Positions 9,762 to 51,352 of a stretch of 53,426 bases of DNA are shown piece after piece. Location: IMG/VR virus record IMGVR_UViG_2541047798_000005; one strand, 5' to 3'. A program made the position numbers and the translations under genes. The stretch comes from a virus (Duplodnaviria > Heunggongvirae > Uroviricota > Caudoviricetes). Below the pieces are notes generated by a model. The model saw nothing but the letters and a program-made list of their open reading frames with translations. It had not been told where the DNA came from and did not search any database. Numbering within the stretch: position 1 is the first letter of the stretch; the number at the start of each line of letters is the position of its first letter.

Positions 9762-9790
9762 TTGACTCGATGTTTTACGGGGCGTATATT
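9762..9790 (+). promoter_or_regulatory. pL-like sigma70 promoter (TTGACT-17-TATATT)
   Basis: Near-consensus -35/-10 with 17-bp spacer, immediately preceded by the TACAAAATGG motif; about 350-nt leader before the N-like gene. Confidence 0.6.
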
Positions 9791-10082: not shown

Positions 10083-10138
10083 AATTAACGAAGATGATTT
10101 TTTATTAAGTATCATCAAGGATATACGGAGATCAGATT

Positions 10139-13804: not shown

Positions 13805-13902
13805 CAGCGTGATTGCGATCACATAAATATACATTTTGTATTGCGATCGCATATCCGTTTTGTAAACTGAAATTAAGAGGTTTACGGCACGGAGGAAACA
13901 AG

Positions 13903-17190: not shown

Positions 17191-17348
17191 AGTTTACAAA
17201 ATGGCATCATTGCGTGATGCGGATCACATAATGGCGCTTTTGCCTTGTTTGGTGGTATCCATTTTGTATACTTCAAGCAAACAAAATGCTCTTTAAAAAT
17301 CCGGCAGCGCTGAAATGCGTAGAAATCACCTGAAAAGGAGAGAGCATT

Positions 17349-18549: not shown

Positions 18550-18728
18550 AAAACGAAATTAAAGATCTGCAAATAGATGTTCAACGTGACGAGCATGATT
18601 TAGCGACAGTCAGACGAATCCAGGCTTTTCACATGCAGGAATTACTTGCGCTGAAAGAGCTTGAAAGAAAACTGGTGCAAACCATTTCTGATCGCAAACG
18701 CCTTATTGCTCGCTATGGGGGCAAATAA
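18546..18728 (+). CDS. Hypothetical protein
   Basis: 60 aa ORF, translationally coupled. Confidence 0.4.
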   Translation: MKNEIKDLQIDVQRDEHDLATVRRIQAFHMQELLALKELERKLVQTISDRKRLIARYGGK

Positions 18729-22989: not shown

Positions 22990-23030
22990 GGTGTTGGACA
23001 ACCATAAATGTGATCTGTATCACAATGTAT

Positions 23031-29889: not shown

Positions 29890-30003
29890 AAGATGAACAA
29901 GAATAATTCTCAATTGGCTACATAAAATCTGTCTCACAATCCCCCACAAGTTTTTCTATTTTTCGCGTAGCAACGCGTAAACATGTATTCAGGAGTAAAC
30001 ATT

Positions 30004-36944: not shown

Positions 36945-37421
36945 ATGTCTCAGACTTGCGAAAAAGGCACGTTTACAGGCCGTGACGTTGCTGTATTCTT
37001 CGCTATCGCTTGTCCAAATGCGAAGCCGGAAGCTGAAGCGTACAAAGCGTTAGGCATGATGCGTGGTAAAACACTTTCCGTTGAATGGGAAACCGCTGAC
37101 GCCACCGCCGATAAATCAGCCGATTACACGAAAGAATCAATGGTTACTTACAAATCCGTTTCTTTCTCCGGCGACGGTGTGTCCCGCACTGAAGAAATCC
37201 ATAATCAGAAAGCGCTGAAACGCCACGTAATTACGCCAGGTGAAACCACCGGATCACAACCTTATGTATGGCTGAAGATCGTTTCTCCTGTAGACGTAAC
37301 TGAAGGCCCATTCCTTTGCACTTCCTTTAAAGAAGAAGATCCGCATGATGATGTTTCCACCTGGTCTATTGAGTGCGAAAGCGCTGGCAAGGTAACGGTA
37401 GGCGACGTTCCGCCAGCATAA
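36945..37421 (+). CDS. Major tail protein (putative)
   Basis: 158 aa; strong RBS; followed by hairpin attenuator; position before chaperone and tape measure. Confidence 0.55.
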   Translation: MSQTCEKGTFTGRDVAVFFAIACPNAKPEAEAYKALGMMRGKTLSVEWETADATADKSADYTKESMVTYKSVSFSGDGVSRTEEIHNQKALKRHVITPGETTGSQPYVWLKIVSPVDVTEGPFLCTSFKEEDPHDDVSTWSIECESAGKVTVGDVPPA

Positions 37422-37439: not shown

Positions 37440-37463
37440 GGGGCTATTTGGCCCCTTTTCTTT
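37440..37463 (+). terminator. Hairpin attenuator / terminator after major tail gene
   Basis: GGGGC-tatttg-GCCCC followed by TTTTCTTTT. Confidence 0.5.
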
Positions 37464-37476
37464 TAAGGTGAATACT

Positions 37477-38175
37477 ATGATCCATGTTCGTACAGGACAA
37501 TTTGCTGCCGTGGTGAACGGTAAGCGCTATGAGTTTAATCCTTGCTTTGCTGCGATGGCTAAAATCGGCAACGATAGTGAGCTTGTCGAATATTTCGCAC
37601 TTATCCACGGCGGCAAATATCCATCACGATTGCCAGCAGATCCAGACCTACGCAATCGCATTCTGGCGCGGTGTTATGGTGAAATAGTTAAGACATCAAT
37701 GCACATCCTGAAATGTTGCTCAGACGACGAAATAGGCCCGTTATTGGGCGAATGCTGGTTTACTCCTTCGGGTAAGTTAAAGTTAAAGCCCGGATTAATG
37801 CCGATCGAGGATATCATCACGCTTGCGCAGCACTGCATGTACCACGGTCTTATTGGTGATGGCCCGGAAGAAGAGTCCGGGGAAATCCCGGAAGGGGAAT
37901 ATAAGCCGACTTTTAACGTCCTTGAATTCGTCTATTCTGCCGTTGCTCACCTGGGCTTGTCAGAATCGGAAGCATGGAATATGACAATGACCGGATATAG
38001 GGCCGCTGTACGCGCTAAAACGCCGCCAGACGAAAGAAACGAGAAAAGCAAGCCAAACATTCACATAAATAAACGTGCTTATGACGAGCAAATGGAGGCC
38101 GCTAAAAAGGCACTAGAAAGAATGAAAAATCGTGAGCAAGAAAAGCCCGGTAGATCCGGGCGTTTTGCTAATTGA
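37477..38175 (+). CDS. Tail assembly chaperone (putative)
   Basis: 232 aa from ATG at 37477; located between major tail and tape measure genes. Confidence 0.4.
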   Translation: MIHVRTGQFAAVVNGKRYEFNPCFAAMAKIGNDSELVEYFALIHGGKYPSRLPADPDLRNRILARCYGEIVKTSMHILKCCSDDEIGPLLGECWFTPSGKLKLKPGLMPIEDIITLAQHCMYHGLIGDGPEEESGEIPEGEYKPTFNVLEFVYSAVAHLGLSESEAWNMTMTGYRAAVRAKTPPDERNEKSKPNIHINKRAYDEQMEAAKKALERMKNREQEKPGRSGRFAN

Positions 38176-38542
38176 AATCTTTAATTGCTGTACCTGGTGA
38201 ACTGTGTGTGATTGTATTGTATACAGACTTTGCCTTACTGCGATCTTTCCATTCTTTTAGGATGCAGTTATCAAACTTTGCGATAACCCTTGAAGGGGAT
38301 AATTCTTCAACATCCATGTAAGTAAATCCTATCGTGCTGGTTACTGAATACCATACGTGATAACTATAATTACCGTCATGCTCGATTCTTTGTGGTTCCC
38401 CCATTATTTTATTCACTTGCTCACAAGTCATTCCAACTTGCAAATTTTTATCAGCTAACTTAACGAAATCAGTTGATCTTGCGCACCCTGTAAGAGCTAA
38501 AGCCATAACACCAATGAGAACCGCTTTGATTATTTTTTTCAT
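38168..38542 (-). CDS. Lipoprotein (moron)
   Basis: 124 aa; signal peptide with lipobox LTGC; AAGGGG RBS; opposite strand to tail operon. Confidence 0.65.
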   Translation of the reverse strand: MKKIIKAVLIGVMALALTGCARSTDFVKLADKNLQVGMTCEQVNKIMGEPQRIEHDGNYSYHVWYSVTSTIGFTYMDVEELSPSRVIAKFDNCILKEWKDRSKAKSVYNTITHSSPGTAIKDFN

Positions 38543-38552
38543 GATTTACCCC

Positions 38553-39212
38553 TTAATTCCAGTTGCAAGCGTTTTTCACTTTGTCGATGTGGTTATAAAG
38601 ACCATCAATGTTAAACACTGCTTTCTCAATGTCGCCAGCTTCCGGCACTACTTCAATGATGAATTGTTTTTCGTTAACCAGTTTTTTAATCATTGGGATG
38701 GCTTTTTTGCCGTCCCATAATCCAAGAGCTTTATAATTAGTTGACCGCCACCACTCAGTAGCTACAGCTTTGTGAACGCCGATCCGGTAGTTAATATAAG
38801 TAGTGTCCCCGGCGTCAGTTACATGGTGTGACCATGCTACGAACATTTTTGTTTTATTACCCTGGCAAGCGATTGTTAATACCGGTTTATTCTTATCCTG
38901 TGCCTTCAGTGTCGGGAAAGCATCAAGACTTCCGCTGAATTGTTCTGCTTTCACAAAAAGGAATACGTTTTTTGCGTCCTGCATATCATCTTTTCTTTCA
39001 ACTACAAGCCACTGTTTACCAGCATTTTCTTTTTCTAACTGTGCATCGTATGCGGCTTGTTTTGCTTGTTGTTCTGCAAGCCATTTAGCATTTTTCTCTG
39101 CTAATGCTTGTTGCTCTTGATTGGTCACTATAGGCGCTTTTTCATTATCCTCATTGCAACCAACCAGACCCAATACCGCCGCAATCATTGCCACTTTTGC
39201 TAACCGTTTCAT
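38553..39212 (-). CDS. Lipoprotein (moron)
   Basis: 219 aa; signal peptide with lipobox LVGC; opposite strand to tail operon. Confidence 0.65.
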   Translation of the reverse strand: MKRLAKVAMIAAVLGLVGCNEDNEKAPIVTNQEQQALAEKNAKWLAEQQAKQAAYDAQLEKENAGKQWLVVERKDDMQDAKNVFLFVKAEQFSGSLDAFPTLKAQDKNKPVLTIACQGNKTKMFVAWSHHVTDAGDTTYINYRIGVHKAVATEWWRSTNYKALGLWDGKKAIPMIKKLVNEKQFIIEVVPEAGDIEKAVFNIDGLYNHIDKVKNACNWN

Positions 39213-39258
39213 AACCCACCACGCTAACTTGATTTACTGACCATTCCCTTTAGCTTCC

Positions 39259-39300
39259 TTATACAAAATGGAGTCGTTGAAGTAAAGCCATTTTGTATAA
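39259..39300. promoter_or_regulatory. Perfect 13-bp inverted repeat TTATACAAAATGG-N16-CCATTTTGTATAA; candidate divergent promoter/operator
   Basis: Each arm ends in a TATAA(A/G) -10-like hexamer facing outward toward the tape measure gene (+) and the lipoprotein genes (-). Confidence 0.5.
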
Positions 39301-39339
39301 AATAGATACACAGATCACATTTTTGCATGAGGTTAAATC

Positions 39340-41682
39340 ATGGCTACCAGTGTAGGTACAATTTATTACGAAGTTGATGCGAAAACTGGTCAACTTCTCG
39401 TTGCACAACGACAGGCAGACCAGGCCTTTGATCGTATAGAGCGCGGCGCAAAACAGGCTGACCGCCAGGTAAACACCCTGAAAACATCCATCAAGGCACT
39501 GACCAGGGTTATCCATCTGCTAATTGCTGCGGAGGCTGTGCGCCAATTTATGGATATGGCGGAGCAAGCAAAAATGCTTCGCGTAAAAATCAAAATGCTT
39601 ACGGGCGATGCGGAGTCCGCCGGACGGGTTTTCGACGGCCTGAAAGCAATATCCAGGGAGACGGGGCAGAGCCTGAAAGATACTGGCGAATTATGGCAAG
39701 GCCTGGCTATCTCACTAAAAAACACCTCCGCTACGGAAGGGCAATTGCTTAACCTGGTTGGCACTATTCAGAAAATGGGTGCATTAGGCGGCGCGTCAGC
39801 GGAACAGATGTCTAACTCAATGCGTCAATTCCGTCAGTCTATCGACGGCGGTGTTCTTCGTGCCGAAGAATTTAACAGCCTGCTTGAAAATACGCCGACC
39901 ATCGTACAAACAATGGCCCGCCATATGGGATTATCAATGGGCCAGTTCCGCGCCGAAATGCTGGACGGCAAGATCACGGCTGAAAGGATGGTTAACGCAA
40001 TACAGGCGGCTACGCAGGAAACAAACGATAAGTTTGCTCAGTTGCCGCGCACATCCGGCATGGCTATCAATGAGCTTAAAGTAGAAATTATGGGCCTTGT
40101 TGAGCAGTTGGATGATCTTTTTGGCGTGTCAGATGGCGTTGTTTCAGCTATCGACTTGATCACGAAAGGCGTTAAAGGGCTTGGCGATGGCGCTAAATTC
40201 GCTAAAACCTGCTTCGACACACTCAAAACGGCTGGTAGCGAATTTATCGACATGTTTGATGATGTGGCTGTTAAGGCTGGAGAGGTGGCAGAGAAGATCA
40301 TCGCAATGGTGACGCCAATCAAGGCGCTAATGGATGGCTATAAATGGATGAAGGAGGTAGTAGGAGAGCAAACCGACGAATATAACAGCAACTACGAGAA
40401 GAAATACGGGAAGACCGTTGGCAAGGTCATGCAACTACAGGATGATCTGACCGCAGCAATCCAGGCTACAGAAGAAGCAAGGAAAAATGAACAGAATGCT
40501 GCCAATGACGGAGCGATTACCGGATTCGACAAGCCAGTAGACAAGCCGAAAAAACAGAAAAAAGAGAAGAAATCGGAAGCTGATCGGCTTGGTGACAAAG
40601 GTATAAGCGTTTCTGATCAGTACAACAAAGACGCCGCCGCCATGCGCAAAGCGTTGGAGAACGGCAAGGCCATTGATGCTGCATTTGCCCAGGGTAAAAT
40701 CACGCTCCTTGAGTACCGCGCCGCGCAAAAAGGGATCGGCAAGGAACTGAAAGAAGAATTAGCACAAATTCCGGTAGATGAATTGCGTGATAAATGGTCA
40801 CAAATAGTAAGCCCGATGGATCAGCTAAAAGGCGAAGTTGACCCCATCCAGCAGGCGCAAAATGAATGGGCCATCCGTAAGCAAATGCTTATAGACCTGG
40901 GCGCTACTGAAGCGCAACAGAAACAGGAATTGTTAGCCTATGAGCAACAGATCCGCGATCTGAAATGGGAACAATGGCAGGCGCAAAGCGACACAAACGG
41001 CCTTATCGGTGATTGTGTTAATGGCCTTAAAGGCGGAATGAGTAATGCGCTTGTTGGCCTGTTAAACGGCACTCAATCATTGAGTGATGTTTTTGCTAAC
41101 TTAGGAAGCAATATACTCGGCAATATCGGTAACAGACTCTCAGACATAGCTGCAAACTGGATAGCAGATCAGATCATGATGGAGACACAAAGCAAGGCCA
41201 CGCAAACAAGTACAACAGCAAGCGCGGTAGCAGCTCAGGGAAGCATTGCTGCGGCGGCGGCCCCAGCAGCGGCGGCAACTGCGGCGTCAACTGGCGGTAG
41301 CTGGGCGGCGGCTGGTTCGGCGGCGCTCACTGCGATCATGTCGCTGGCTACGTCAATTTTCGGCGGCGGTCGCTTTAATGGTGGTAGCGTCATTGGTGGT
41401 AATATGTACCGCGTAGGGGAACACAACAGGCCGGAGCTATTCCAGACATCTAACGGCAATCAATATATGATCCCTGGCGAGAACGGCAGAGTTATTCCGG
41501 GCCGTGATATTGGCGGCGGTGGCGGTATTAGTATGCCTGTCAGTATCAGCATTCAGACCACGAACGGATTCAGCGACGAAGACAGCCGCAGACTTGAATT
41601 AACAATGGAACGTGTAGCCATGAAAATGATAACAAGGGAATCTCAAAGACCAGGCGGAATGTTGCAACCTCGCCGCAAATAA
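39340..41682 (+). CDS. H: Tail tape measure protein
   Basis: 780 aa; extended alpha-helical region and Gly/Ala-rich segment; followed by lambda-type M, L, K, I, J. Confidence 0.85.
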   Translation: MATSVGTIYYEVDAKTGQLLVAQRQADQAFDRIERGAKQADRQVNTLKTSIKALTRVIHLLIAAEAVRQFMDMAEQAKMLRVKIKMLTGDAESAGRVFDGLKAISRETGQSLKDTGELWQGLAISLKNTSATEGQLLNLVGTIQKMGALGGASAEQMSNSMRQFRQSIDGGVLRAEEFNSLLENTPTIVQTMARHMGLSMGQFRAEMLDGKITAERMVNAIQAATQETNDKFAQLPRTSGMAINELKVEIMGLVEQLDDLFGVSDGVVSAIDLITKGVKGLGDGAKFAKTCFDTLKTAGSEFIDMFDDVAVKAGEVAEKIIAMVTPIKALMDGYKWMKEVVGEQTDEYNSNYEKKYGKTVGKVMQLQDDLTAAIQATEEARKNEQNAANDGAITGFDKPVDKPKKQKKEKKSEADRLGDKGISVSDQYNKDAAAMRKALENGKAIDAAFAQGKITLLEYRAAQKGIGKELKEELAQIPVDELRDKWSQIVSPMDQLKGEVDPIQQAQNEWAIRKQMLIDLGATEAQQKQELLAYEQQIRDLKWEQWQAQSDTNGLIGDCVNGLKGGMSNALVGLLNGTQSLSDVFANLGSNILGNIGNRLSDIAANWIADQIMMETQSKATQTSTTASAVAAQGSIAAAAAPAAAATAASTGGSWAAAGSAALTAIMSLATSIFGGGRFNGGSVIGGNMYRVGEHNRPELFQTSNGNQYMIPGENGRVIPGRDIGGGGGISMPVSISIQTTNGFSDEDSRRLELTMERVAMKMITRESQRPGGMLQPRRK

Positions 41683-41686
41683 ACTA

Positions 41687-41716
41687 AACCCCGGTGCAAT
41701 GCCGGGGTTATTTTTC
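41687..41716 (+). terminator. Rho-independent terminator after tape measure gene
   Basis: CCCCGG-tgcaatg-CCGGGG hairpin plus T-run; near-identical to the terminator at 35100. Confidence 0.75.
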
Positions 41717-41768
41717 GTATTTATAAACGACCATTCCGCGCGATATATCCCCTTTCGAATATCTCGAC

Positions 41769-42023
41769 TCACTTATGAGTGCCTTTCACGCCACATAACT
41801 TGTTATAGGCATGGTGCTCAACAATTAACCAAACCTTCAAATCTTCGCTAAACAGCCTCCAATCAAGATTGATATCCATTTTGTATCCGTAACCGTCGCG
41901 TAACTTTTTGGGGTAAACTTCTTTTCTCAGAAAGGCTTTAAGTAATTCCTTACCTTTCTTGATGATCCGGTCCTGTGCGTTTTTCTGTGCTTTCAGATTT
42001 CTGTCAATCGCTACCAGTTTCAT
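41769..42023 (-). CDS. Small basic protein, candidate toxin-like component of a two-gene cassette
   Basis: 84 aa; 17 nt downstream of a 51-aa ORF on the same strand; family not confidently assigned. Confidence 0.35.
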   Translation of the reverse strand: MKLVAIDRNLKAQKNAQDRIIKKGKELLKAFLRKEVYPKKLRDGYGYKMDINLDWRLFSEDLKVWLIVEHHAYNKLCGVKGTHK

Positions 42024-42040
42024 AACTCACCCCATCATCC

Positions 42041-42196
42041 TTAGTTAAGTGCCTTCAGGAAGAAGTCCCGGTATTCATCTTCTTTCGCATTCATCATGAA
42101 TTGACCGTATTTGAATGCGTCGTCGAAACCCTTAACGATTGCTATTTCCACTTGTTCGAATGCGTTATTTAGCATTACTACTACATAGCGTTTCAT
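42041..42196 (-). CDS. Small protein (51 aa), candidate antitoxin-like partner
   Basis: Not in ORF track; ATG with GGAGG RBS; candidate promoter TTCACA-17-TATATA upstream on minus strand. Confidence 0.35.
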   Translation of the reverse strand: MKRYVVVMLNNAFEQVEIAIVKGFDDAFKYGQFMMNAKEDEYRDFFLKALN

Positions 42197-42236
42197 TTTG
42201 GGCCTCCTTCGTTGGTACTGCTTTCTTCTTGCTTTC

Positions 42237-42304
42237 TATATACATCTTGTTGCGTGCTATGTGAAGCCATTTTGTAAACTAGCTATAATCATTGTGACAA
42301 TGAT
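42237..42304. promoter_or_regulatory. Control region: minus-strand promoter (TTCACA-17-TATATA), CCATTTTGTAAAC motif, TATAAT box and perfect palindrome ATCATTGTgACAATGAT (42288-42304)
   Basis: Direct reading; palindrome has 8-bp arms around a single central base. Confidence 0.45.
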
Positions 42305-42363
42305 CTTATTTTTCGCGTAGAAGCGCGTAAAGATATATACAAAATGTAACTTGTGGGGGTTTT

Positions 42364-42717
42364 ATGCCGGAAGTGTTCAGATGGACGCCGCAAAGAAGCT
42401 ACAGCGTGACCAGGAAGCCAGACGTATCTGTTGTTAAGCTGGGCGATGGTTATGAGCAAAGACAGGTAAAAGGTATCAATCCATTGCTTGATAGCTACAC
42501 CCTGGTGTTTAAAGGCAGTAGCGCCGGATGTGGTGATGGTGGAAACGTAGCAATCCAGGCGGAAGCATTCTTGAGGGCGCGCGGCGCGGTCGAGGCTTTT
42601 TACTGGTCGCCGTCAATGGATAACGTGCAAAGGCTTTTTGTCTGTCGGCAATGGAGCATGACTAAAGACGGGCCTTTGTACACGCTAAACGCAACGTTTG
42701 AGCAAGTTGTTGGCTAA
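42364..42717 (+). CDS. M: Minor tail protein M
   Basis: 117 aa; similarity to lambda gpM as recalled (...FRW.....LGDGY.QR...G.N.....Y...F......FEQVV). Confidence 0.8.
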   Translation: MPEVFRWTPQRSYSVTRKPDVSVVKLGDGYEQRQVKGINPLLDSYTLVFKGSSAGCGDGGNVAIQAEAFLRARGAVEAFYWSPSMDNVQRLFVCRQWSMTKDGPLYTLNATFEQVVG

Positions 42718-42914
42718 TGGGGGTTGTTATGTACGGGACTTGTGTAGTTGACAAAACTTACGCTTTTACATTGTTTGACGACTATGAGATCAACGACCTT
42801 ACTGTAAAAGCTGACAACGGCGATATATGGTATCTTCACGACGTTGGTGATGGGTACGTTGGGTGTAGATCCCGGGAAGGGAAGGAGGTTTTATTTTTGG
42901 TTGATGGCGTATAA
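42717..42914 (+). CDS. Hypothetical small protein (moron, between M and L)
   Basis: 65 aa; followed by terminator. Confidence 0.4.
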   Translation: MGVVMYGTCVVDKTYAFTLFDDYEINDLTVKADNGDIWYLHDVGDGYVGCRSREGKEVLFLVDGV

Positions 42915-42918
42915 ACAC

Positions 42919-42947
42919 GACCCCGCGCGAAGCGGGGTTATTTTTAT
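42919..42947 (+). terminator. Rho-independent terminator
   Basis: CCCCGC-gcgaa-GCGGGG hairpin followed by TTATTTTTA. Confidence 0.7.
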
Positions 42948-43070
42948 TCTATTTCCATTAATGCTATATTTTCTGCTATCGTTTTCCAGTCCAGATCTAC
43001 AGCATGAACGCCAAATACTATCAACCCCATTATTATTAGCGCCAAAACTTCTATTTTTATAATCAGTCAC

Positions 43071-43319
43071 CTATAAGTTATCACGCAGATAATTAACGCC
43101 CTTATCAGTGACGAATGAATGGTTAACCTGGTTTTCATCCGTCATGATGATGAATAACTTTTCATGTAGGTATTTCGCTTTCGGGTACAGCGTTAAACAG
43201 ACCTGGTACAGTATCCCGCGCTCAATCAGCAAATCAATAAATTCGTGTTCATGATAACCGATGAGGCGGGCGGCCTGTTTCAACGTGTACACATAATCAC
43301 CGTGATTGCGCCGCCCCAT
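43071..43319 (-). CDS. Hypothetical protein (moron cassette gene 3)
   Basis: 82 aa; opposite strand to tail operon. Confidence 0.45.
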   Translation of the reverse strand: MGRRNHGDYVYTLKQAARLIGYHEHEFIDLLIERGILYQVCLTLYPKAKYLHEKLFIIMTDENQVNHSFVTDKGVNYLRDNL

Positions 43320-43328
43320 GTTGCCGCC

Positions 43329-43676
43329 TTATTTATCGAATGCTGAAAGGTTATCGATACAGAAATCTTTCGCCGCTTTTTCGTATTCGCGTTTTGCTTC
43401 TGGATCGTCAGCCGGGAAACCTTTTGCGTGTATTTCACCAGGGCAAGACTGGTCCATAGAATCTGCATAATAAGCAGTGAAGCTACCATTAATATCTTTC
43501 GGGTTCATATCTTCCACCTCATCAACTATCTGTACCGGATTAGCAGCATATTTCACTGGATGGCCTAAACTACATTCAAGAATCCTGCCTTCTTCCAGGG
43601 CTACTTCTTCGCTATCAAATAATCCGAAACACTCCTTGCTACCACTTAACCACACATCAAGACTGTATTTTTTCAT
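43329..43676 (-). CDS. Hypothetical protein (moron cassette gene 2)
   Basis: 115 aa from ATG at 43676 with GAGG RBS. Confidence 0.45.
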   Translation of the reverse strand: MKKYSLDVWLSGSKECFGLFDSEEVALEEGRILECSLGHPVKYAANPVQIVDEVEDMNPKDINGSFTAYYADSMDQSCPGEIHAKGFPADDPEAKREYEKAAKDFCIDNLSAFDK

Positions 43677-43845
43677 TTTTGTTAGCCTCATATTTGACAG
43701 GTTCGATCTGGTATCCCAAAAGGCGGTCATCCTCAGCAAGTAAAAGCGCGTCAACCAATGCTTCACCCTCGTCGTCATACAGGGCGATAACCTTTTCCCT
43801 ACCGTCTGTCATGAATACCGTCAACTTCCATAGCTTTTCAGTCAT
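43657..43845 (-). CDS. Hypothetical small acidic protein (moron cassette gene 1)
   Basis: 62 aa from ATG at 43845 with GGAGG RBS; overlaps gene 2 start by 20 nt. Confidence 0.4.
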   Translation of the reverse strand: MTEKLWKLTVFMTDGREKVIALYDDEGEALVDALLLAEDDRLLGYQIEPVKYEANKNEKIQS

Positions 43846-43974
43846 AACGCACCTCCGCGCCATTTTGTTAACTATGCTTCCGTTTGAGTAAAATATACAT
43901 ATTGTAAAAACCGCGATCAATCCATTTTGGTATGATTTAGCGTGACGCAGATCACAGAATGACAAGGTGAGAAA

Positions 43975-44679
43975 ATGCGCAATATTCCGAGAGAAATGAT
44001 TATTGATTCCGTCGATGCCGGAGTCGGCGCGGTAATTGACTTGTTTGAATTAGACCTCACGCCCCTGGGTGGCGAGGTTATCCGCTTCCATTCCGGCGTG
44101 AATGGCTATTACGGCCCGGTTATCTGGAAGGGGGTGGCTTACAACAGCTACCCTATCGAGGCCACTGGCTTCGAAATGAAAAACGAGGGTGTCTATTCAC
44201 GCCCGCAAATGGTTGTAGCCAACATTGGCGGCCTAATCACCGGGATGAATAACGATTTCAACGACCTGCGAGGAATGAAAGTTACACGCCGCCAGGTGGA
44301 AGTAAAATACCTGGACGCCATCAACTTCCCCAACGGCAACCCGGATGCAGATCCGTCTATCGAGGCGGTGTCTTTTTACGTCGTTGAGGCGATGAGCGAA
44401 GAAACAGCCGACCAGGTGCAATATGAGCTGTCAACGCCAATTGATGCTGACAAGGCGGTTATCCCAGGGCGCACAATCCTTGCTGACGTTTGCCAATGGC
44501 AATATCGCGGCGACGGTTGCGGATACAGTGGCGGCCCTGTAGCTACTGATAAAGACGAATCGACCAGCGATCCAAAGCTGGATAAATGCAGCCACCGCCT
44601 GAGCGGTTGCCGTTTACGTTTCCCGCGCCCGAATCCGTTACCAATTTCATGTTTCCCAGGATCGAGCAAGGTGGGTTGA
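43975..44679 (+). CDS. L: Minor tail protein L
   Basis: 234 aa; similarity to lambda gpL as recalled (...DLTPLGGEV..F......Y..YPI...GFE.......RP...V.N......GM......L.G..V.RR.V....LDA.NF.NGN..ADP...). Confidence 0.85.
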   Translation: MRNIPREMIIDSVDAGVGAVIDLFELDLTPLGGEVIRFHSGVNGYYGPVIWKGVAYNSYPIEATGFEMKNEGVYSRPQMVVANIGGLITGMNNDFNDLRGMKVTRRQVEVKYLDAINFPNGNPDADPSIEAVSFYVVEAMSEETADQVQYELSTPIDADKAVIPGRTILADVCQWQYRGDGCGYSGGPVATDKDESTSDPKLDKCSHRLSGCRLRFPRPNPLPISCFPGSSKVG

Positions 44680-44681
44680 TT

Positions 44682-45413
44682 ATGGCACTTGAAGATAAAA
44701 TGATTCGCTATGCAGCAGCCCACCCGCGCGAGGAAGTGTGCGGGCTGGTGATAGATAACGATTATTTTTACCCGTGCGCTAACGTGTCTGAAACGCCGCA
44801 CAACAGCTTTAAAATCTCGCCTGACGATTATATCAAAGCTGACGAATTGGGCGTTATAACAGCCGTTTTCCACTCTCACGTTGAAGATATTCCGGTATTG
44901 TCGGCACGGGATCGACAACAGCAGGTTATTTCCGGCCTGCCGTGGTTTTTATGTTCCGGTGGCATGGTGAGGAAATTCCGCCCGGTGGCGCACCTGTTAG
45001 GCCGTAAATTTGAACACGGGAAAACAGATTGCTACTCGCTTTTTCGTGACGCCTATCACCTTTGCGGCGTGGATCTGCCTGACTTTGAACGCCACGATGG
45101 GTGGTGGCTGCGTGGGGAAAACCTGTACATAAAAAACCTGCCATTGAACGGGTTTTTCATGGTTGATGCGCAAAGCATTCAGCCTGGTGACGTGATTATT
45201 CGCCAGCCGTTCAAGGGTGCTGACCCATGTCACGCGATGATTTACCTGGGCGATAACACTGTTTTGCATCATGACAATGCCGGACTGCTAAGCCGCCGCG
45301 AGCAAATGCGGCCCGCGTATGTTCGACAAACGCATTCAATATGGAGATCTGACAAATGCTCAAATTTAGATTTACGGGCAATCTTCGAAGATATTACGGC
45401 AAAGTGTGTTTAA
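44682..45413 (+). CDS. K: Tail assembly protein K
   Basis: 243 aa from ATG at 44682; lambda K-like region (DGWWLRGENLYIKN..., HAMIYLGDN); MPN/NlpC-like. Confidence 0.75.
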   Translation: MALEDKMIRYAAAHPREEVCGLVIDNDYFYPCANVSETPHNSFKISPDDYIKADELGVITAVFHSHVEDIPVLSARDRQQQVISGLPWFLCSGGMVRKFRPVAHLLGRKFEHGKTDCYSLFRDAYHLCGVDLPDFERHDGWWLRGENLYIKNLPLNGFFMVDAQSIQPGDVIIRQPFKGADPCHAMIYLGDNTVLHHDNAGLLSRREQMRPAYVRQTHSIWRSDKCSNLDLRAIFEDITAKCV

Positions 45414-45886
45414 ACGTTGATACGCCAGCACAAGGACTTAGCCTATTGACCGCGCAGAATCAGGAGTTCAAGAAGGCTTTTTTAAATACACCTTTGCGGT
45501 TACGGATTGCCGGGAAAGATTATAACGAAAAGACGGCCCCGGCAGCGGTTAATAGTAAATACCCTGACGGAACTACCGTCATTATTGCGCCAGTAGTTGA
45601 AGGCGGTATTGCTGGGATTGGTGTTGTAGGCTGGATCCTGATTGGTGTTTCGGTGGTTAGCGTTGCGTTCTCAATCTTTATGTCCCGCAACATGAAGATA
45701 AAAACATCGGCAGAAAGCGCACAAGATAACACCATAACGAACAACACCTACACCAGCATTGAAAACAAGGTGGGCCAGGGTAGACCAGTGCCAATACTAT
45801 TAGGTGAAATGAAAATAGGTTCAAACGTCGGATCGTTAGGCATAGACACAAGCAACAATAGAGACGCCTTAGACGTTGTAAGTTAA
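45356..45886 (+). CDS. I: Tail assembly protein I
   Basis: 176 aa; position and hydrophobic central segment as in lambda gpI. Confidence 0.65.
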   Translation: MLKFRFTGNLRRYYGKVCLNVDTPAQGLSLLTAQNQEFKKAFLNTPLRLRIAGKDYNEKTAPAAVNSKYPDGTTVIIAPVVEGGIAGIGVVGWILIGVSVVSVAFSIFMSRNMKIKTSAESAQDNTITNNTYTSIENKVGQGRPVPILLGEMKIGSNVGSLGIDTSNNRDALDVVS

Positions 45887-45899
45887 CAGGAGAAAAACC

Positions 45900-48800
45900 A
45901 TGAGTAGCGGCGGCGGCAAAGCCAAAACACCAACATTATTGAACGATAACCTGTATCACAAACAGTTTTATCGTGTTTTAGATATTCTCAGCGAAGGGCC
46001 GATATACGGTCCGGTAAACCAGAAGGCGCCATTGAATGACGTGATGCTTAATGACACTCCTGTTACTGACGCAAACGGGAATACATCAATTCCGGGGATT
46101 AGTATAGCCTGGCGCAACGGCACGGCTGACCAATCGCCGATTAATGGTTTTAACGCCATTGAGTCAACCGTTATTGTCAACGCAAAGGTAACTCACGACA
46201 CACCAATAATCAGGACTGTTTCAGATCCAAACGTTACCCGCGTCAGGTTGAATCTTGGTGTTGATGCTCTCGTTCAGTCAGATGAAAAGGGCAATCAATA
46301 TAATACATCCGTCATGTTGATGGTTGATGTTAAACCGTCATCATCTTCTACGTGGTCGCTGATTAAAGACATACACATTGGCCCTGGTAAACAAAGCGGT
46401 GAATACCTGGAAGCTCACATCATTAAAGCGCCGGATGAAAAACCGTTTGATATTCGCGTTCGTCGCATAACACCAGACAGCAACGGCGATCTATTGCGGA
46501 ATGATACGCGGTGGAGTAGTTACAGCGAAATAATAGATGATAATCTGTCTTATCCTCATACCGCTGTAGCTGGCGCCGTAATTGACCATGATCAGTATAC
46601 TGATACGCCTACCCGCACCTATCACCTTCGCGGCCTGATTGTTGATGTGCCTGACAACTACAACCCTGAAACGCGCACATATTCAGGTTTATGGCTTGGT
46701 GGATTTAAAAAGGCGTATACCAATAACCCTGCATGGCTTTTCCGGTATCTGGTTAAAAACGAGCGCTTTGGACTTGCTCGACATGCTGGTTACATTGATG
46801 TTGATGATGGCGCTTTGTACGTGCTTTCTCAATACTGCGATCAGTTGGTTGATGATGGCTATGGTGGCCTTGAACCTCGCATGACGCTTAACGCTTACAT
46901 TACGGAGCAAATGAGCGCCCGCGACCTACTGGATAACATCGCAGGTATGTTCCGTGGTATCGCGTTATGGGACGGACAACGTCTTACCGTGATGATTGAT
47001 GCGCCACAAGATCCAATCGCCACCATCACAAATGCAAACGTCGTTGATGGCGCGTTTACTCGTTCAAGTATCGCACGCGCAGAATGCTACAACGCCGTGA
47101 TCGTATCCTGGACTGACCCTGAAAACGGCTGGGAGCAATCAAAAGAATATGTCGCAGATGATAAACTAATCGCCCGTGATGGTTATAACGAAACCACGTT
47201 GGAGGCGTTCGGTTGCACTTCACGCGGGCAAGCGCACCGCGCTGGTAAATGGCTGATCGAAACAGCGAAACGCGAGCCGTCAAAATTCACATTTAAAATG
47301 GCCCGTGACGCCATTCACTTTACGCCGGGGGATATAATCGAGATCCTCGATAATAATCGCGCAGGCGCTCGTTTAGGCGGTCGCATCGTGGCGAACAATG
47401 GCAGAGCGATCACGGTCGACAAGGTTGATTCTGAATATATCGCGGCTGGCGACACCATCAGCTTACTTGATAGCGATGGTAAATTTAAAAAACACCAGAT
47501 CATCGGAGTTAACGGGAACATTATCACCCTTGCAGCCGCCCCGGCGTGGATTCGTAACGGCACTGTTTTTGCTGTATCAACCAACGCAGCAAAACCCGTT
47601 TTATGTCGAATCACCAGTGTAGCAGAAACAGAAAATAACAGCGTATACACCATCGAGGCCGCACAGCATGATCCACATAAGCAGGCCGTAGTCGATAATG
47701 GCGCAATCTTCGAGATCAATAACGACACGCTTAATCACTTCCGCGTGCCGAACATTGAAAATCTGAAGGTGTTAAACGTTGGATCTGAAACGGTTCAATG
47801 TCGCGCAACATGGGAAACACAGACGACAACGCGTCGCCTGACCTTTGAGATTCGCGTGTATAACGCCGAAGGCGCTGTAGTTAAAAGCTACGAAACCACG
47901 AATTACAGTTATGATTTTTATGGCATTGATGCTGGCAACTACTCATTAGGCATTCGTGGCAGAAATGACACGGGCATGAAGGGTGCGGAAAGCATTGTCG
48001 ATCTGGTTATTGGCGCACCAGCGGCCCCAGTTGGCGTTAATTGGGTTCCCGGTGTATTCCAGGCTACAGTTTACCCGATCAGCAGAACAACGCTCACCAC
48101 TGATACCAGTTACGAGTTTTATTACTCAGGTGAAACGCAGATCACTGATCCGGCATCAATAACCACTAAAGCACAATATACCGGGCGTGGTCATCAGTGG
48201 ACGTTTGGCGGCATGAATACAGGTCACACATATTACGTTTATGTGCGCGCGCGTAACGCTTTTGGTGTGTCTGACTTTGTGGAAGCGTCAGGTAAGCCAA
48301 CAGAAAACTTTGATGAAATTACCGATTACGTCACCAAAGACGTAATGAATTCCAAACAATTTAAAGAAATGGTTGGTGACATTAAAGATCTAGGCGACCG
48401 CACTGATCTTATCGAAAGCGCTACGAATGACCTTAAAACTGCTACTGACAACCTCAAAACTGCAACTGATAATCTGACCAACATAACTGACGATTTAAGG
48501 ACTGAAACTGACAACCTAACCATAGAAACAGGATCAATAAAAGCTGATACTGATACGCTCAAAAAAGAAACGGAAGATCTTTATAAAAAAGTTAAGGAAA
48601 ACGCCGATGATATTGGACAGCATGAGTCGAGAATCGACTCGCTGGAGGTGTCTAGCGAAAAAGTTGGCAGCGAACTGGCGCAAGCAAAAGCAAGTCTGCA
48701 AAACGCCTCACTTGCTCTTATTAATAACTCGCTTGCACAGACTAACACTCGCGTAACTCTTACCGCTCAGTACAAGAAAGGCAGGACAGAGACGAAAGCG

Positions 48801-50870
48801 GAAATTGACCGCATTGACAACGTTATCGCTGAAGAGAAAAAAGCGACAGCGGAATCACTGGAAACCATCACGGCAGAAATGAATGTGATGGACACAAACC
48901 TTAAAGGTCAGATCTCTAATGTGCAACGCGCAGTAGCTGACGAGGCCAGCGCCCGCGCTGAAGCTATTAACGGTGTAAATGCCTCAATAAGCAATCTTGA
49001 CAAGAAAACTGACGCCAGCGTAAACCGTCTTGATCAGGCAATTGCAGACGAAACAAGTGCGCGTACTCAGGCTATCAGCGACGTGAACGCAAGTATCTCA
49101 ACACTTGACAAGAAAACTGACGCCAGCGTTAAGCGCCTCGATAATGCAATATCAGATGAAACGCAGGCAAGAAGCGACGCAATAACAGTGGTTAAAGCTG
49201 ATTTAACAACGCTTGAAAATAACACAAATGCCAGTGTTAGCCGTCTTGATCAAGCTATCGCTGATGAATCAAGCGCACGTGCTCAGGCGATATCAGGTAT
49301 CAGCGCGACGCTTGGCGGCGTTAAAAGTGAGGTTGATAAAAACAGCGACGAGATAGATCAGGCGAAAGCAAGTCTGCAAAACGCATCTCTGGCGCTTATT
49401 AATAACTCAATGGCGCAAAGCAAGATGAGCACTGTTATTGAGGCGAAATACAGGAAAGGACAAACAAAAACAAAAGCGGAAATAGCAAGGGTAGACACAG
49501 CAATCGCAGATGAGGCGAGCGCACGCGCAGAAGCTATTAGCAACGTTAACGCCAGCGTCAGTAGTCTTGAAAGCAAAACCGACGCGAGCGTTTCCCGTCT
49601 TGATAAAGCAATCGCAGATGAGGCGAGCGCACGCGCAGAAGCTATTAGCGGGGTTAATGCGTCAATTTCCACGCTCGATAGCAAGGTGACAAGCAACGTA
49701 ACCAGGATGGATAAAGCGATCGCAGATGAGAAGAATGCACGCACTGACGCAATCAGCAGCCTTAACTCATCGCTTACCAGTACGATTAATTCGAAAGTAT
49801 CCGAAGTGTCAACTGCACTTTCTACGCATGAAACATCAAGCGCGGAAAAATTTGGCCAGATCTCGGCATCTTTCGACGATGTAAACTCAAGCATCACGGA
49901 ATGGTCACAGGCTATGGCAACGGCAGACGAGGCATTGTCAACCAGAATCGACCAGTTGAAAGTAACTATTAACGGAAACACAACGGCGATAGAAACGACA
50001 TCAAAAGCACTGACTGACTTCAAAGGTAACGTTGATGCGTCATATTCAATTAAGATTGCCACTGATAAAAACGGTATGAAATACGCTACAGGAATGTCGC
50101 TCGGCCTTACTGGTAGCGGGACTAACGTTCAATCGCAGTGTATTTTCCTCGTTGACCGTTTCGTGCTTATGACTGCGGCAGGTGGCTCCTATCAGACCCC
50201 GTTCTATGTTACTAACGGTGCTTGCTACATCCGTGATGCGTGGATCAGAGACGCATCAATCACTACCGCGAAGATTGCGCAGCAAATTCAGTCAACCAAC
50301 TATAAAGCTGGTTCGGCTGGCTGGATGCTAAATAAAAACGGCAATGCGGAGTTCAACAACGTCACTGTACGCGGTACGGTGTACGCAACATCTGGTAAAT
50401 TCACTGGTGAGATTCAGGCCACAAGCGGGAAGTTTAAAGGTACAGTAGAGGCAAAGTCATTTGTCGGTGACGTTGCTAACATGGGGGTTGGTCCAGATCG
50501 AGTGCTTGGGCATAACGGAAGTTATAGCGCAACCATCACATATAAAGACAGCACGGATAATGCATTGACGAAATCAGTTATGCTTATGGCGACTATTTCA
50601 TTAATGTCTGGTGAATATAGATCCACTTATAACGTAACGTTTAGTTGCGGAGATAAAAACAAAACAATTTCATATTACGTGCCTTATGGTGGATGCACAT
50701 TAACAGTGCAATGCGCTTTTTCTGGTTTAAAAGCATCAGATATTATCGGGAAAATATATTGTCCTCAAACATCATCATCTGAAGGATACGCATATTGTAC
50801 CGCGTTGTATTCTCCAACAATGATAGTAGCAAGAGGCACCGGATCATTTAGAACATCAACGACAGCATAA
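45900..50870 (+). CDS. J: Host-specificity central tail fibre protein J with expanded coiled-coil repeat region and divergent C-terminus
   Basis: 1656 aa; N-terminal two-thirds collinear with lambda J as recalled; residues about 930-1300 are coiled-coil tandem repeats. Confidence 0.85.
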   Translation: MSSGGGKAKTPTLLNDNLYHKQFYRVLDILSEGPIYGPVNQKAPLNDVMLNDTPVTDANGNTSIPGISIAWRNGTADQSPINGFNAIESTVIVNAKVTHDTPIIRTVSDPNVTRVRLNLGVDALVQSDEKGNQYNTSVMLMVDVKPSSSSTWSLIKDIHIGPGKQSGEYLEAHIIKAPDEKPFDIRVRRITPDSNGDLLRNDTRWSSYSEIIDDNLSYPHTAVAGAVIDHDQYTDTPTRTYHLRGLIVDVPDNYNPETRTYSGLWLGGFKKAYTNNPAWLFRYLVKNERFGLARHAGYIDVDDGALYVLSQYCDQLVDDGYGGLEPRMTLNAYITEQMSARDLLDNIAGMFRGIALWDGQRLTVMIDAPQDPIATITNANVVDGAFTRSSIARAECYNAVIVSWTDPENGWEQSKEYVADDKLIARDGYNETTLEAFGCTSRGQAHRAGKWLIETAKREPSKFTFKMARDAIHFTPGDIIEILDNNRAGARLGGRIVANNGRAITVDKVDSEYIAAGDTISLLDSDGKFKKHQIIGVNGNIITLAAAPAWIRNGTVFAVSTNAAKPVLCRITSVAETENNSVYTIEAAQHDPHKQAVVDNGAIFEINNDTLNHFRVPNIENLKVLNVGSETVQCRATWETQTTTRRLTFEIRVYNAEGAVVKSYETTNYSYDFYGIDAGNYSLGIRGRNDTGMKGAESIVDLVIGAPAAPVGVNWVPGVFQATVYPISRTTLTTDTSYEFYYSGETQITDPASITTKAQYTGRGHQWTFGGMNTGHTYYVYVRARNAFGVSDFVEASGKPTENFDEITDYVTKDVMNSKQFKEMVGDIKDLGDRTDLIESATNDLKTATDNLKTATDNLTNITDDLRTETDNLTIETGSIKADTDTLKKETEDLYKKVKENADDIGQHESRIDSLEVSSEKVGSELAQAKASLQNASLALINNSLAQTNTRVTLTAQYKKGRTETKAEIDRIDNVIAEEKKATAESLETITAEMNVMDTNLKGQISNVQRAVADEASARAEAINGVNASISNLDKKTDASVNRLDQAIADETSARTQAISDVNASISTLDKKTDASVKRLDNAISDETQARSDAITVVKADLTTLENNTNASVSRLDQAIADESSARAQAISGISATLGGVKSEVDKNSDEIDQAKASLQNASLALINNSMAQSKMSTVIEAKYRKGQTKTKAEIARVDTAIADEASARAEAISNVNASVSSLESKTDASVSRLDKAIADEASARAEAISGVNASISTLDSKVTSNVTRMDKAIADEKNARTDAISSLNSSLTSTINSKVSEVSTALSTHETSSAEKFGQISASFDDVNSSITEWSQAMATADEALSTRIDQLKVTINGNTTAIETTSKALTDFKGNVDASYSIKIATDKNGMKYATGMSLGLTGSGTNVQSQCIFLVDRFVLMTAAGGSYQTPFYVTNGACYIRDAWIRDASITTAKIAQQIQSTNYKAGSAGWMLNKNGNAEFNNVTVRGTVYATSGKFTGEIQATSGKFKGTVEAKSFVGDVANMGVGPDRVLGHNGSYSATITYKDSTDNALTKSVMLMATISLMSGEYRSTYNVTFSCGDKNKTISYYVPYGGCTLTVQCAFSGLKASDIIGKIYCPQTSSSEGYAYCTALYSPTMIVARGTGSFRTSTTA
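48680..49740 (+). repeat. Nested tandem repeats within J (about 40-aa AIADE.SAR..AIS.VNAS coiled-coil units plus a larger duplication beginning DQAKASLQNASLALINNS)
   Basis: Repetition visible at both protein and DNA level; generates a spurious 234-aa antisense ORF. Confidence 0.7.
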
Positions 50871-50898
50871 AAAACGGGGCATAAGCCCCGTTTTTTTT
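50870..50898. terminator. Bidirectional rho-independent terminator between J and the convergent minus-strand gene
   Basis: ACGGGGC-ataa-GCCCCGT hairpin flanked by A-run and T-run. Confidence 0.8.
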
Positions 50899-50909
50899 AT
50901 GCATTGTTT

Positions 50910-51155
50910 TTATTTTTTACACCCATCATTTACACCAGAAAAATGGATAGGTAAATTACATTCACTGTCAATAATTTTACCTTGTAGTTGTTTTTCTTTC
51001 CATGAGTCAGTATTGAAATAACTCGAACGTTGGTTATCAAGGCCAGTATCACCATATTGAGCAGTGCCAGCATCACTCTTATCTGTCGAATTTACAGAAG
51101 CAAAAGCACCAAAAGACAGAGCTGATAAGATGCAAGCAACAATTAGTTTTTTCAT
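50910..51155 (-). CDS. Small secreted protein (moron)
   Basis: 81 aa from ATG at 51155; Sec signal peptide MKKLIVACILSALSFGAFA; two Cys near C-terminus. Confidence 0.5.
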   Translation of the reverse strand: MKKLIVACILSALSFGAFASVNSTDKSDAGTAQYGDTGLDNQRSSYFNTDSWKEKQLQGKIIDSECNLPIHFSGVNDGCKK

Positions 51156-51352
51156 TGTATTCACCTTACTGTTTGTTTTACTGTCATTTGTTGTTCGTGA
51201 TGATCCACCCATCCGATGAGCAAATCACCGCAGAAGCTATCATTTCGTATGTTGATATAGATCAAAAAATACATTATGTATAAGCCCAAAGTGTAACACA
51301 GATCACAAAATGGTAGAATTGTTTAGTTAATTAACAAAACGGAGTTATTGCG

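Follow-up and report, generated by a model that had tools for sequence, protein, structure and literature searches.

Reverse-strand cassettes at four junctions of the tail gene module of an mEp021-like prophage: family-wide and exchangeable parts

The DNA considered here, referred to as the window, is a stretch of 53,426 nucleotides from IMG/VR virus record IMGVR_UViG_2541047798_000005 (Caudoviricetes), and the subject is its tail gene module, in which genes in the order known from phage lambda are split into five plus-strand segments by four cassettes with genes on the minus strand. An earlier note, made from the letters of the window alone, had described such interruptions at four junctions; their positions proved to be right, the same genes being called by RefSeq in the prophage of Escherichia coli CB7286, and minus-strand genes were found at the same four junctions in all annotated relatives. 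The arrangement is probably best explained by four AT-rich minus-strand cassettes of the moron type, the first and the fourth being exchangeable exclusion cargo and the second and the third ancient insertions common to the whole family, with late transcription proceeding by antitermination, by restart, or by both. The tail genes are the following, lengths being given in amino acids (aa) where they apply:

36945-37421, plus strand: tail tube gene, at the position of lambda V (Pfam Phage_tail_2, E = 5e-9; RefSeq 'phage tail tube protein').
37468-38175, plus strand: DUF6246 gene, at the tail-chaperone (G/T) position (Pfam DUF6246, E = 4e-54; ES18 gene 17 holds the same position).
39340-41682, plus strand: tape measure protein, at the position of lambda H (Pfam TMP_3, E = 1e-49).
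42364-42717, plus strand: minor tail protein M (Pfam Phage_min_tail, E = 1e-27).
43975-45886, plus strand: tail tip genes L, K and I (Pfam Phage_tail_L, E = 9e-72; K with NLPC_P60 and JAB).
45900-50870, plus strand: J, central tail fibre or host-specificity protein, 1656 aa (annotated as J in mEp021, mEp010 and RefSeq).
51353-53149, plus strand: side tail fibre or tail tip gene, here Stf (its DNA is 88% identical to side-tail-fibre genes found in other coliphages; RefSeq name).

Pfam thus supports the tube gene, the DUF6246 gene at the chaperone position, the tape measure gene, M, L and K, while I and J were named solely through the annotations of relatives (mEp021, mEp010, RefSeq). Between these genes lie the cassette genes:

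38168-38542, minus strand: A124, lipoprotein of 124 aa with signal MKKIIKAVLIGVMALALTG/C and lipobox LTG/C (phrog_18614, E = 9e-64); cassette 1.
38553-39212, minus strand: B219, lipoprotein of 219 aa with lipobox LVG/C and a VasI/TagO-type domain (Pfam VasI, E = 1.2e-15, 58 bits, cut-off 26.5); cassette 1.
41769-42023, minus strand: C84, 84 aa, basic (isoelectric point, pI, 9.9), with a ParE-like domain (Pfam ParE_like PF24732, E = 9e-12, 45 bits, cut-off 24.4); cassette 2.
42041-42196, minus strand: D51, 51 aa, acidic (pI 5.1), upstream of C84 (phrog_29810); cassette 2.
42717-42914, plus strand: p65, acidic protein of 65 aa, co-oriented with M and at the position of ES18 gene 24 (phrog_3249, E = 1.5e-22); junction 3 (M/L).
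43071-43319, minus strand: F82, 82 aa, a stand-alone KilAC (antirepressor C-terminal) domain (Pfam ANT, E = 1e-6, 29.4 bits, cut-off 25.3); cassette 3.
43329-43676, minus strand: G115, acidic protein of 115 aa whose N-terminal domain varies and whose last 45 aa are near-invariant; cassette 3.
43657-43845, minus strand: H62, acidic protein of 62 aa, first gene of cassette 3 (phrog_29559).
50910-51155, minus strand: I81, secreted protein of 81 aa with signal ...GAFA/SVNS and two conserved cysteines; cassette 4.

The interruptions could be mere annotation noise, that is, chance open reading frames on the non-coding strand of long spacers, or functionless inversion scars, and it is true that short spurious reading frames are numerous on both strands of the region and that I81 has almost no diverged homologues for a test of selection. 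Nevertheless, in comparison with diverged relatives, eight of the nine cassette genes displayed an excess of substitutions at the third codon position (positions 1/2/3: 43/25/294 in D51, 72/46/254 in F82, 260/262/808 in C84), the bias being weaker in G115 and H62; the ninth is I81, for which the comparison set contained no diverged relative and hence too few substitutions. Moreover, all nine genes matched families of the PHROG collection in hidden Markov model searches, lipoboxes and signal peptides stand where they are expected, and independent callers (RefSeq, the authors of the mEp phages and Pharokka-style annotations, for seven related phages) agree on the genes. As for I81, its homologues, 66-73% identical, retain the signal peptide, both cysteines (C66 and C79) and an invariant set of 50 residues, and its mature part is conserved. 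Noise is already refuted for eight genes, and as an account of the interruptions as a whole it is hardly credible.

The phages resembling mEp021 were described in 2025 as the 'mEpimmI' group (PMC11893012). Between 36.9 and 53.4 kb the window is 84-87% identical in DNA to mEp021, mEp010, mEp013, mEp044, mEp515, mEp554 and MagusPhagus, with 55-69% of the 16.5-kb tail region covered, and its tail proteins are 77-100% identical to those of mEpimmI relatives; the CB7286 prophage is 98.9% identical across the full length of the tail region, and some part of the region is matched by about one sixth of complete E. coli genomes. The features by which the group is recognised, namely genome similarity and synteny with mEp021, a CI-like repressor and the structural module of the group, were all found, the repressor being a LexA-family protein at 8991-9638 with HTH_3 and Peptidase_S24 domains. 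A Q-type antiterminator is encoded at 18728-19456 (Pfam PF03589, E = 2.5e-31). Judged by these sequence comparisons, the window represents a temperate siphophage of the mEp021-like (mEpimmI) type that has integrated into E. coli.

For the distribution of the cassettes, 37 loci of the mEpimmI type were collected, together with 49 from a sister group with 67-70% identity in the M protein, consisting of ES18-, Oslo- and SPN3UB-like phages of Salmonella and E. coli. Presence was counted among the mEpimmI loci spanning each junction:

Junction 1, chaperone/H: A124 in 9/33 loci; B219 in 12/33.
Junction 2, H/M: C84 in 35/35; D51 in 33/35.
Junction 3, M/L: p65 in 34/35; F82 in 34/35; G115 in 34/35; H62 in 33/35.
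Junction 4, J/fibre: I81 in 10/31.

The chaperone/H and J/fibre junctions are occupied in every relative with differing contents, at least eight alternative gene arrangements at the former and at least five at the latter having been counted; at the former, the alternative cargo consists mostly of proteins with a signal peptide, a lipobox or membrane segments. The suggestion that the module is a hotspot for accessory cargo consequently held for these two junctions, where the content varies, and not for H/M and M/L, where the same genes recur in 33-35 of 35 relatives and are not sporadic. The sister group lacks the cassette genes, save for distant A124-like (two loci, about 31% identity) and B219-like homologues, and in some of its phages H, M and L simply abut, with gaps of -1 to 2 bp between H and M and of 11-36 bp between M and L. 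One mark of a moron in the Juhala/Hendrix definition (restated in PMC3594210), additional DNA separating genes which adjoin each other in relatives, is therefore present here, with the provision that cassettes 2 and 3 count as additional solely by comparison with the sister family and lambda and are near-universal inside mEpimmI. Being near-universal in mEpimmI and absent from the sister group, the H/M and M/L cassettes are therefore old insertions fixed in the family, and not recent morons. Deviant base composition, another mark of morons (PMC3594210), was found at all four junctions, the GC fraction of the junction segments being 0.392, 0.401, 0.426 and 0.349 against 0.46-0.51 in the tail genes.

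Precedents for this layout exist in Salmonella phage ES18 (NC_006949), which shares the DUF6246 gene, the tape measure gene, M, L, K, I, J and the fibre gene, M being 67-70% identical in ES18-like loci. For three of these junctions its record gives the label 'possible moron' (to genes 18-20 between the DUF6246 and tape measure genes, to minus-strand gene 22 between the latter and M, and to genes 24, plus, and 25, minus, between M and L), while its J/fibre junction holds genes 30 and 31 and the minus-strand exclusion gene cor (gene 32), and predicted terminators adjoin its cargo. In contrast with the window, the ES18 cargo is unrelated, apart from the distant A124-like and B219-like genes of some ES18-like loci, and at the chaperone/tape measure junction it is co-oriented with the tail genes; besides, the H/M and M/L cargo is fixed in mEpimmI and not sporadic.

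A natural variant of metagenomic origin (L011) illustrates how cleanly a fixed cassette can be lost: 1.13 kb corresponding to window 42731-43863, the whole of cassette 3 with the 65-aa gene, are missing, the deletion junction (L011:10354-10480) falls on a short overlap, TTAT/TTTG, and L still has its control region. Conversely, the H/M and M/L junctions of some relatives hold extra cargo (zinc-ribbon, T5orf172 and HNH genes, an IS200-like transposase). An IS200-like Y1 transposase was seen at the H/M junction of locus L025 (about 8733, plus strand), an HNH endonuclease at that of mEp515 (L006, 9727-10233), and an HNH gene between I and J of mEp021 (L001, 13204-13770) and also of mEp515. Homing endonucleases or transposons were considered as the cause of the interruptions in the window and rejected, since its cassettes contain no such genes.

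Where tail gene and cassette converge, and also after the tube gene, GC-rich hairpins with U-tracts were found, with z-scores from -2.2 to -6.8 and most of them readable on both strands (folding free energy, dG, given for one or both strands):

37440-37455, plus strand: terminator after the tube gene, dG -11.5 kcal/mol, then UUUUCUUUU.
38145-38161: bidirectional terminator common to the DUF6246 gene and cassette 1, dG -13.8 / -14.6 kcal/mol; 0/200 shuffles fold as well.
41687-41709: bidirectional terminator common to the tape measure gene and cassette 2, dG -16.3 / -14.2 kcal/mol.
42919-42939: bidirectional terminator that follows p65 and faces cassette 3, dG -16.1 / -14.5 kcal/mol.
50875-50898: bidirectional terminator common to J and cassette 4, dG -18.5 / -23.3 kcal/mol; z-scores -5.5 / -6.8.

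Terminators are independently predicted in the records of mEp010, mEp013, mEp515 and mEp021. The earlier note had placed terminators on both flanks of each insertion; this was borne out for the convergent (3') flank of each cassette, and at the 5' side no terminator was found in any of the four.

Between its two tail genes, cassette 1 encodes two lipoproteins, as had been proposed, with a lipobox in each. A124 is weakly similar to BamE/OmlA (Pfam BamE, E = 1e-3, below the cut-off), and a homologue of 32% identity lies at the same junction of an ES18-like locus (L063), on the plus strand; B219 has homologues of 22% identity at the same junction in two further ES18-like loci (L049, L069), on the other strand, and showed no match to solved structures when compared by sequence. 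A precedent is gene 15 of HK97, which is co-oriented with the tail genes. It occupies exactly the chaperone/tape measure junction, as cassette 1 does, and differs in that gp15 is an inner-membrane protein, while the window encodes on the opposite strand two predicted lipoproteins of the outer-membrane type with no sequence similarity to gp15. HK97 gene 15 was the first moron to be named, with its own promoter and terminator and deviant GC content (Juhala 2000; Cumby 2012; in PMC3594210), and gp15 is a small envelope protein which blocks the DNA entry of phages with matching tails (PMC3594210).

At the J/fibre junction, the predicted secreted protein of 81 aa was also recovered, a signal peptide being found in I81. 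The family is rare (7 clusters among 5.8 billion protein clusters, none of them informative) and closely linked to the receptor-binding gene: I81 is present in 10/10 loci with the C-terminus of J found in the window and in 0/21 with another. In the recombinants L013 and L014 the J N-terminus is 94% identical, the J C-terminus 100% and Stf 73%, and I81 is retained. The lipoproteins encoded at the J/fibre junction of mEp021 and mEp010 have been shown experimentally to exclude superinfecting phages, in a manner matched to the receptor type, OmpA or LamB (PMC11893012, section 3.7). Lpp021 (mEp021 gp81) and Lpp010 (mEp010 gp116) resemble I81 in group, junction and strand, and their cargo likewise co-varies with the receptor specificity of J (PMC11893012); I81, whose role is a prediction, belongs to another, very rare family and has a leader of the signal-peptidase-I type, not a convincing lipobox. 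Being a small exported protein adjacent to and co-inherited with the receptor-binding gene, as expected of exclusion proteins of the Cor, Llp and Lpp021/Lpp010 type, I81 can be regarded as a candidate receptor-matched superinfection-exclusion factor.

Cassettes 2 and 3 have the character of conserved phage accessory genes, not of cargo of benefit to the host. It had been stated beforehand that finding the same genes as conserved core tail components in related phages would speak against the proposal of moron cassettes. This was found in part: both cassettes are family-wide and the KilAC-like protein is counted by manual analysis among the core proteins of the group (PMC11893012, discussion); as regards virion components, the genes of cassettes 2 and 3 carry no 'virion structural protein' label based on mass spectrometry in the mEp021 record. 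F82 is 87-100% identical among relatives and, like C84, had no match by sequence among solved structures; for G115 and H62 no recognisable fold was found, nor a family in the Pfam search. That these cassettes are lytic-cycle accessory or regulatory genes, acting on the lysis-lysogeny decision, on host functions or on tail gene expression and transcribed from the same regulated class of promoters as the tail genes, is a possibility of somewhat less than even weight. In keeping with it, they are found in 33-35 of 35 relatives and evolve under purifying selection; it also agrees with the core listing of the KilAC-like protein, the antirepressor-type domain of F82, the box CCATTTTGT which cassettes and tail genes have in common, back-to-back or face-to-face (see below), and the CRP-like palindrome at 42293-42308, downstream of the start regions of both M and D51. 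However, the loss of cassette 3 in the uncultivated L011 and of D51 in two loci indicates that they are not strictly essential; they are AT-rich relative to the tail genes and absent from the ES18-like sisters, as acquired DNA would be, and the mEp021 record gives no gene of theirs a virion protein label.

Alternatively, cassette 2 might be a type II toxin-antitoxin module, with C84 as toxin and D51 as antitoxin, which would stabilise the prophage or give abortive infection. The ParE_like match lies above the Pfam gathering score, RefSeq names C84 a 'ParE family toxin-like protein', the layout is classic, a small acidic gene lying 17 bp upstream of a small basic one, and both genes are conserved throughout the family. 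On the other hand, two loci (L029 and L030, 9582-10000) carry an intact C84 and no D51, the 167 bp up to M being devoid of reading frames of 20 aa or more; for an active toxin this should be lethal unless an antitoxin is encoded elsewhere, and the obligatory adjacent antitoxin characteristic of ParDE is thus lacking in these loci. Neither a PADLOC match nor a match by sequence to a solved ParE or RelE structure was obtained for C84, and its AlphaFold model is of low confidence (predicted local distance difference test, pLDDT, 57) and matches no fold. D51 matched no known antitoxin family, and it forms 5 representative clusters among 1.8 billion representative proteins, all from close relatives. 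It can be kept as a candidate partner or antitoxin of C84, though not an obligatory one, and the toxin-antitoxin explanation of cassette 2 appears doubtful.

Each downstream tail gene was also said to be preceded by motif-bearing sequences, which is indeed the case. The window has 15 copies of the box CCATTTTGT, where 1.0 would be expected, and CCATTTTGTAWAC, with up to two mismatches, at 21 sites against about 3 expected, mostly intergenic and with early and late genes alike (2196, 5121, 7116, 8905, 9748, 13855, 17192/17259, 23027/23056, 39259/39288, 42267/42335, 43860/43922 and 51301). The second motif, CAGATCACA, is found 4 times against 0.34 expected and is the right half of a CRP-like palindrome, YGTGAY-N4-ATCACA; GATCACA lies within 70 bp of 7/16 boxes, against 0.43 expected under random placement. 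CRP-like palindromes of this form stand beside the box at 13808-13823, 17213-17228, 23009-23024, 42293-42308, 43941-43956 and 51292-51307. Four control regions precede H, M, L and Stf:

39260-39319, divergent control region between B219 and the tape measure gene: inverted pair TATACAAAATGG-N16-CCATTTTGTATA, then GATCACA (39313-39319).
42267-42347, control region between D51 and M: CCATTTTGTAAAC at 42267-42279; TATAAT at 42284-42289; CRP-like palindrome TGTGACAATGATCTTA at 42293-42308; hairpin CGCGTAGAAGCGCG at 42314-42327; minus-strand box ACATTTTGTATAT at 42335-42347.
43860-43956, control region between H62 and L: box CCATTTTGTTAAC at 43860-43872; minus-strand sigma-70-like promoter TTGATC-17-TATATT at 43920-43892; box with extended -10 CCATTTTGGTATGAT at 43922-43936; CRP-like palindrome CGTGACGCAGATCACA at 43941-43956.
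51252-51319, control region upstream of the side-fibre gene: FNR-like TTGATATAGATCAA at 51252-51265; CRP-like TGTAACACAGATCACA at 51292-51307; extended -10 TGGTAGAAT at 51311-51319.

Both motifs are kept upstream of these four genes in 25-32 distinct relatives, while the spacers of the palindromes and the neighbouring cassettes vary. The first region is near-invariant in 29 distinct relatives despite the differing cassette on its left, the second is kept in 32, the third has invariant half-sites and a variable spacer in 26, and the fourth is kept in most of 25. The motifs are nearly invariant amid varying spacers and cassettes, and their elements are therefore functional. The element TTGATATAGATCAA, about 100 bp upstream of the side-fibre gene, is a perfect palindrome of the FNR type, of which TTGAT-N4-ATCAA is found in most relatives.

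What the box does is less clear-cut. A role as promoter is suggested by the hexamers resembling a -10 element which directly follow it and by its usually pointing at the next gene. Of the promoter and terminator of its own expected of a moron (PMC3594210), the terminator is clear in the cassettes; promoters are predicted before cassettes 1 and 2 (box plus -10-like hexamer) and before cassette 3 (TTGATC-17-TATATT), and upstream of I81 no convincing promoter was found. A canonical sigma-70 reading of the box was rejected because no consistent -35 hexamer lies at 16-18 bp, and a textbook extended -10 because at most sites the TG is one base too near the -10-like hexamer. A role as operator is suggested in turn by an inverted pair of identical geometry, ACAAAATGG-N16-CCATTTTGT, which occurs at 23.0 and 39.3 kb, and by the box at 9748, which abuts the -35 element of a strong rightward promoter beside the repressor gene. 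The general CRP consensus TGTGA-N6-TCACA with two mismatches is not enriched in the window (23 against 23 expected), only the stricter form containing GATCACA and its co-occurrence with the box being significant. A GATC site for Dam is embedded in most of the CRP-like palindromes, the copy at 23009 being a perfect TGTGATCTGTATCACA, and the CB7286 prophage encodes an N6-adenine methyltransferase and a regulator of the Lrp/AsnC family; taken together, these features suggest methylation-sensitive control as a possibility.

The motif pair lends itself to a further explanation, in which the tail genes would be five separately initiated units, not one Q-dependent operon, with a common module formed by the box CCATTTTGT and the GATC-containing palindrome YGTGAY-N4-ATCACA, which is also found ahead of early operon segments near 13.8, 17.2 and 23.0 kb. 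On this view the reverse cassettes fixed in the family would serve as built-in insulators and antisense partners, and a single regulator would govern tail genes and cassettes; this might be the CI-like repressor, host CRP, or a factor sensitive to Dam methylation such as the Lrp-family protein of the phage with its own adenine methylase. Restart promoters before H, M, L and Stf are plausible; they are not required, however, since the phage encodes a Q-type antiterminator, and the five-unit arrangement as a whole is considered unlikely.

The explanation preferred here, with four moron-type cassettes in a late operon, would work as follows. Each cassette would start in a divergent control region beside the downstream tail gene and end at a hairpin also serving the upstream tail gene. 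Cassettes 1 and 4 would supply proteins exported to the envelope (two lipoproteins and one secreted disulfide protein), most likely excluding superinfecting phages from the prophage state, as we infer from their position, export signals and linkage: the products of cassette 1 would act against tape-measure-mediated DNA entry, like HK97 gp15 at the same site, and that of cassette 4 against the receptor of the adjoining J C-terminus, like Lpp021 and Lpp010. With a Q antiterminator present, the hairpins should be no bar to late transcription, as is the case in lambda, and rightward transcription would cross the cassettes by Q-type antitermination, re-initiate before H, M, L and Stf, or do both. 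Antisense read-through would moreover lower the expression of the cassettes in the lytic cycle, after the manner of a noncontiguous operon (one that encloses a reverse gene, with transcripts overlapping each other), whose prerequisites (a Q antiterminator, and at each junction a strong terminator for late transcription to pass) are present. Gene content, coding status, terminators, motifs and the pattern of conservation and variability are established by the analysis; the timing of expression, the exclusion activity and the interplay between antitermination and restart are predicted features of the model. RNA sequencing of a strain carrying a prophage of this kind was sought in the literature; the study on LF82 deals with different ones.

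A tested model for the coordination of reverse cassettes and late genes is provided by phi80, where the Q operon encloses the reverse gene taiEcA; the lysogen expresses this gene, and its expression falls once Q is made (PMC11364771, section 13). As with taiEcA/atiEcA, reverse genes here would interrupt a Q-dependent late operon; the difference is that taiEcA lies upstream of the packaging genes and not among tail genes, and neither Tai homology nor a counter-defence partner was detected in the window. In lambda, lom lies between J and stf, co-oriented with J, as the single interruption in the tail gene series. It is the counterpart of junction 4, the lysogenic-conversion morons lom and bor alike encoding accessory envelope proteins in or near the late region. 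Lom and Bor are moron products expressed from the prophage (PMC3594210).

Several observations weigh against the preferred explanation. The box CCATTTTGT also stands before early genes, and its inverted pairs at 17.2 and 23.0 kb have no minus-strand gene to transcribe, for which reasons it may be an operator instead of a promoter. Promoter assignments are at the level of consensus, and the sigma-70 scan is not enriched overall (25 found against 30 expected); expression of the cassettes is a prediction. As to function, no cassette protein matches a known defence family: the anti-phage genes suspected in the earlier note gained no support from PADLOC-DB 2.0, whose models matched none of the nine cassette proteins and none of the 10 families of alternative cargo taken from relatives. 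Both the D51-less loci and an unconfirmed ParE fold make it less likely that cassette 2 is a toxin-antitoxin module. I81 is not homologous to the Lpp proteins (cluster c23 against c16 and c2) and has no lipobox in a plausible position, and its linkage to J could simply reflect a distance of 40 bp from the J stop codon. Finally, the label of virion structural protein, which the paper on the group assigns by mass spectrometry, is borne by mEp021 gp80, a DUF6453 protein encoded on the minus strand at the J/fibre junction, and reverse orientation alone is therefore no proof of a moron expressed in lysogeny.

The gene for the DUF6453 protein (314-327 aa) lies on the minus strand at the J/fibre junction in mEp021 (L001, 18987-19922), mEp515 and locus L036, whereas ES18-like loci (L038, L042 and others) have it there in plus-strand orientation; it follows from the opposite strands in the two lineages that the module was inverted between them.

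Current concepts are left unchanged by these results, tail-operon morons having been recognised at these sites since HK97 and ES18. The lipoprotein genes are placed within the structural cluster in the paper on mEpimmI (PMC11893012), in whose searchable text and supplements the four-junction architecture, the two fixed cassettes and the regulatory motifs are not described. What is added is the division into fixed and exchangeable cassettes, the module of J C-terminus and I81, and an unexplained phage-wide motif pair, so that a clean comparative map of fixed and exchangeable parts is available for the tail module of a widespread gut coliphage. A124, B219 and I81 are candidate new superinfection-exclusion factors, the predicted target of I81 being the receptor of the linked J C-terminus, and the two family-wide reverse cassettes and the phage-wide motif pair are flagged for attention.

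Some observations concern other parts of the phage. Scans of the whole window with Rfam and for tRNA genes gave zero matches. In the 5' leader of gene M, a conserved hairpin CGCGUAGAAGCGCG (42314-42327) has a purine-rich loop resembling that of hairpin GCCGCUGGAAGUGCGGC at 10067-10083, which follows a boxA-like GCTCATTAACAA; the latter two probably form a nutR site, and the M leader hairpin could be a nut-like element, though without an adjoining boxA. A strong rightward sigma-70 promoter, TTGACT-17-TATATT, lies at 9761-9789, just downstream of the CI-like repressor gene. In lambda, cI is transcribed leftward. The position of the repressor gene on the plus strand therefore points to an immunity-region layout unlike that of lambda. 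The CB7286 prophage is flanked by two fragments of an abgT-family gene. At the portal position, a protein of one relative (L087:31084-32454, corresponding to about 29983-31374 of the window) bears the RefSeq name 'anti-CBASS protein Acb1 family protein', which is probably a naming artefact for a portal gene or else reflects a fused domain.

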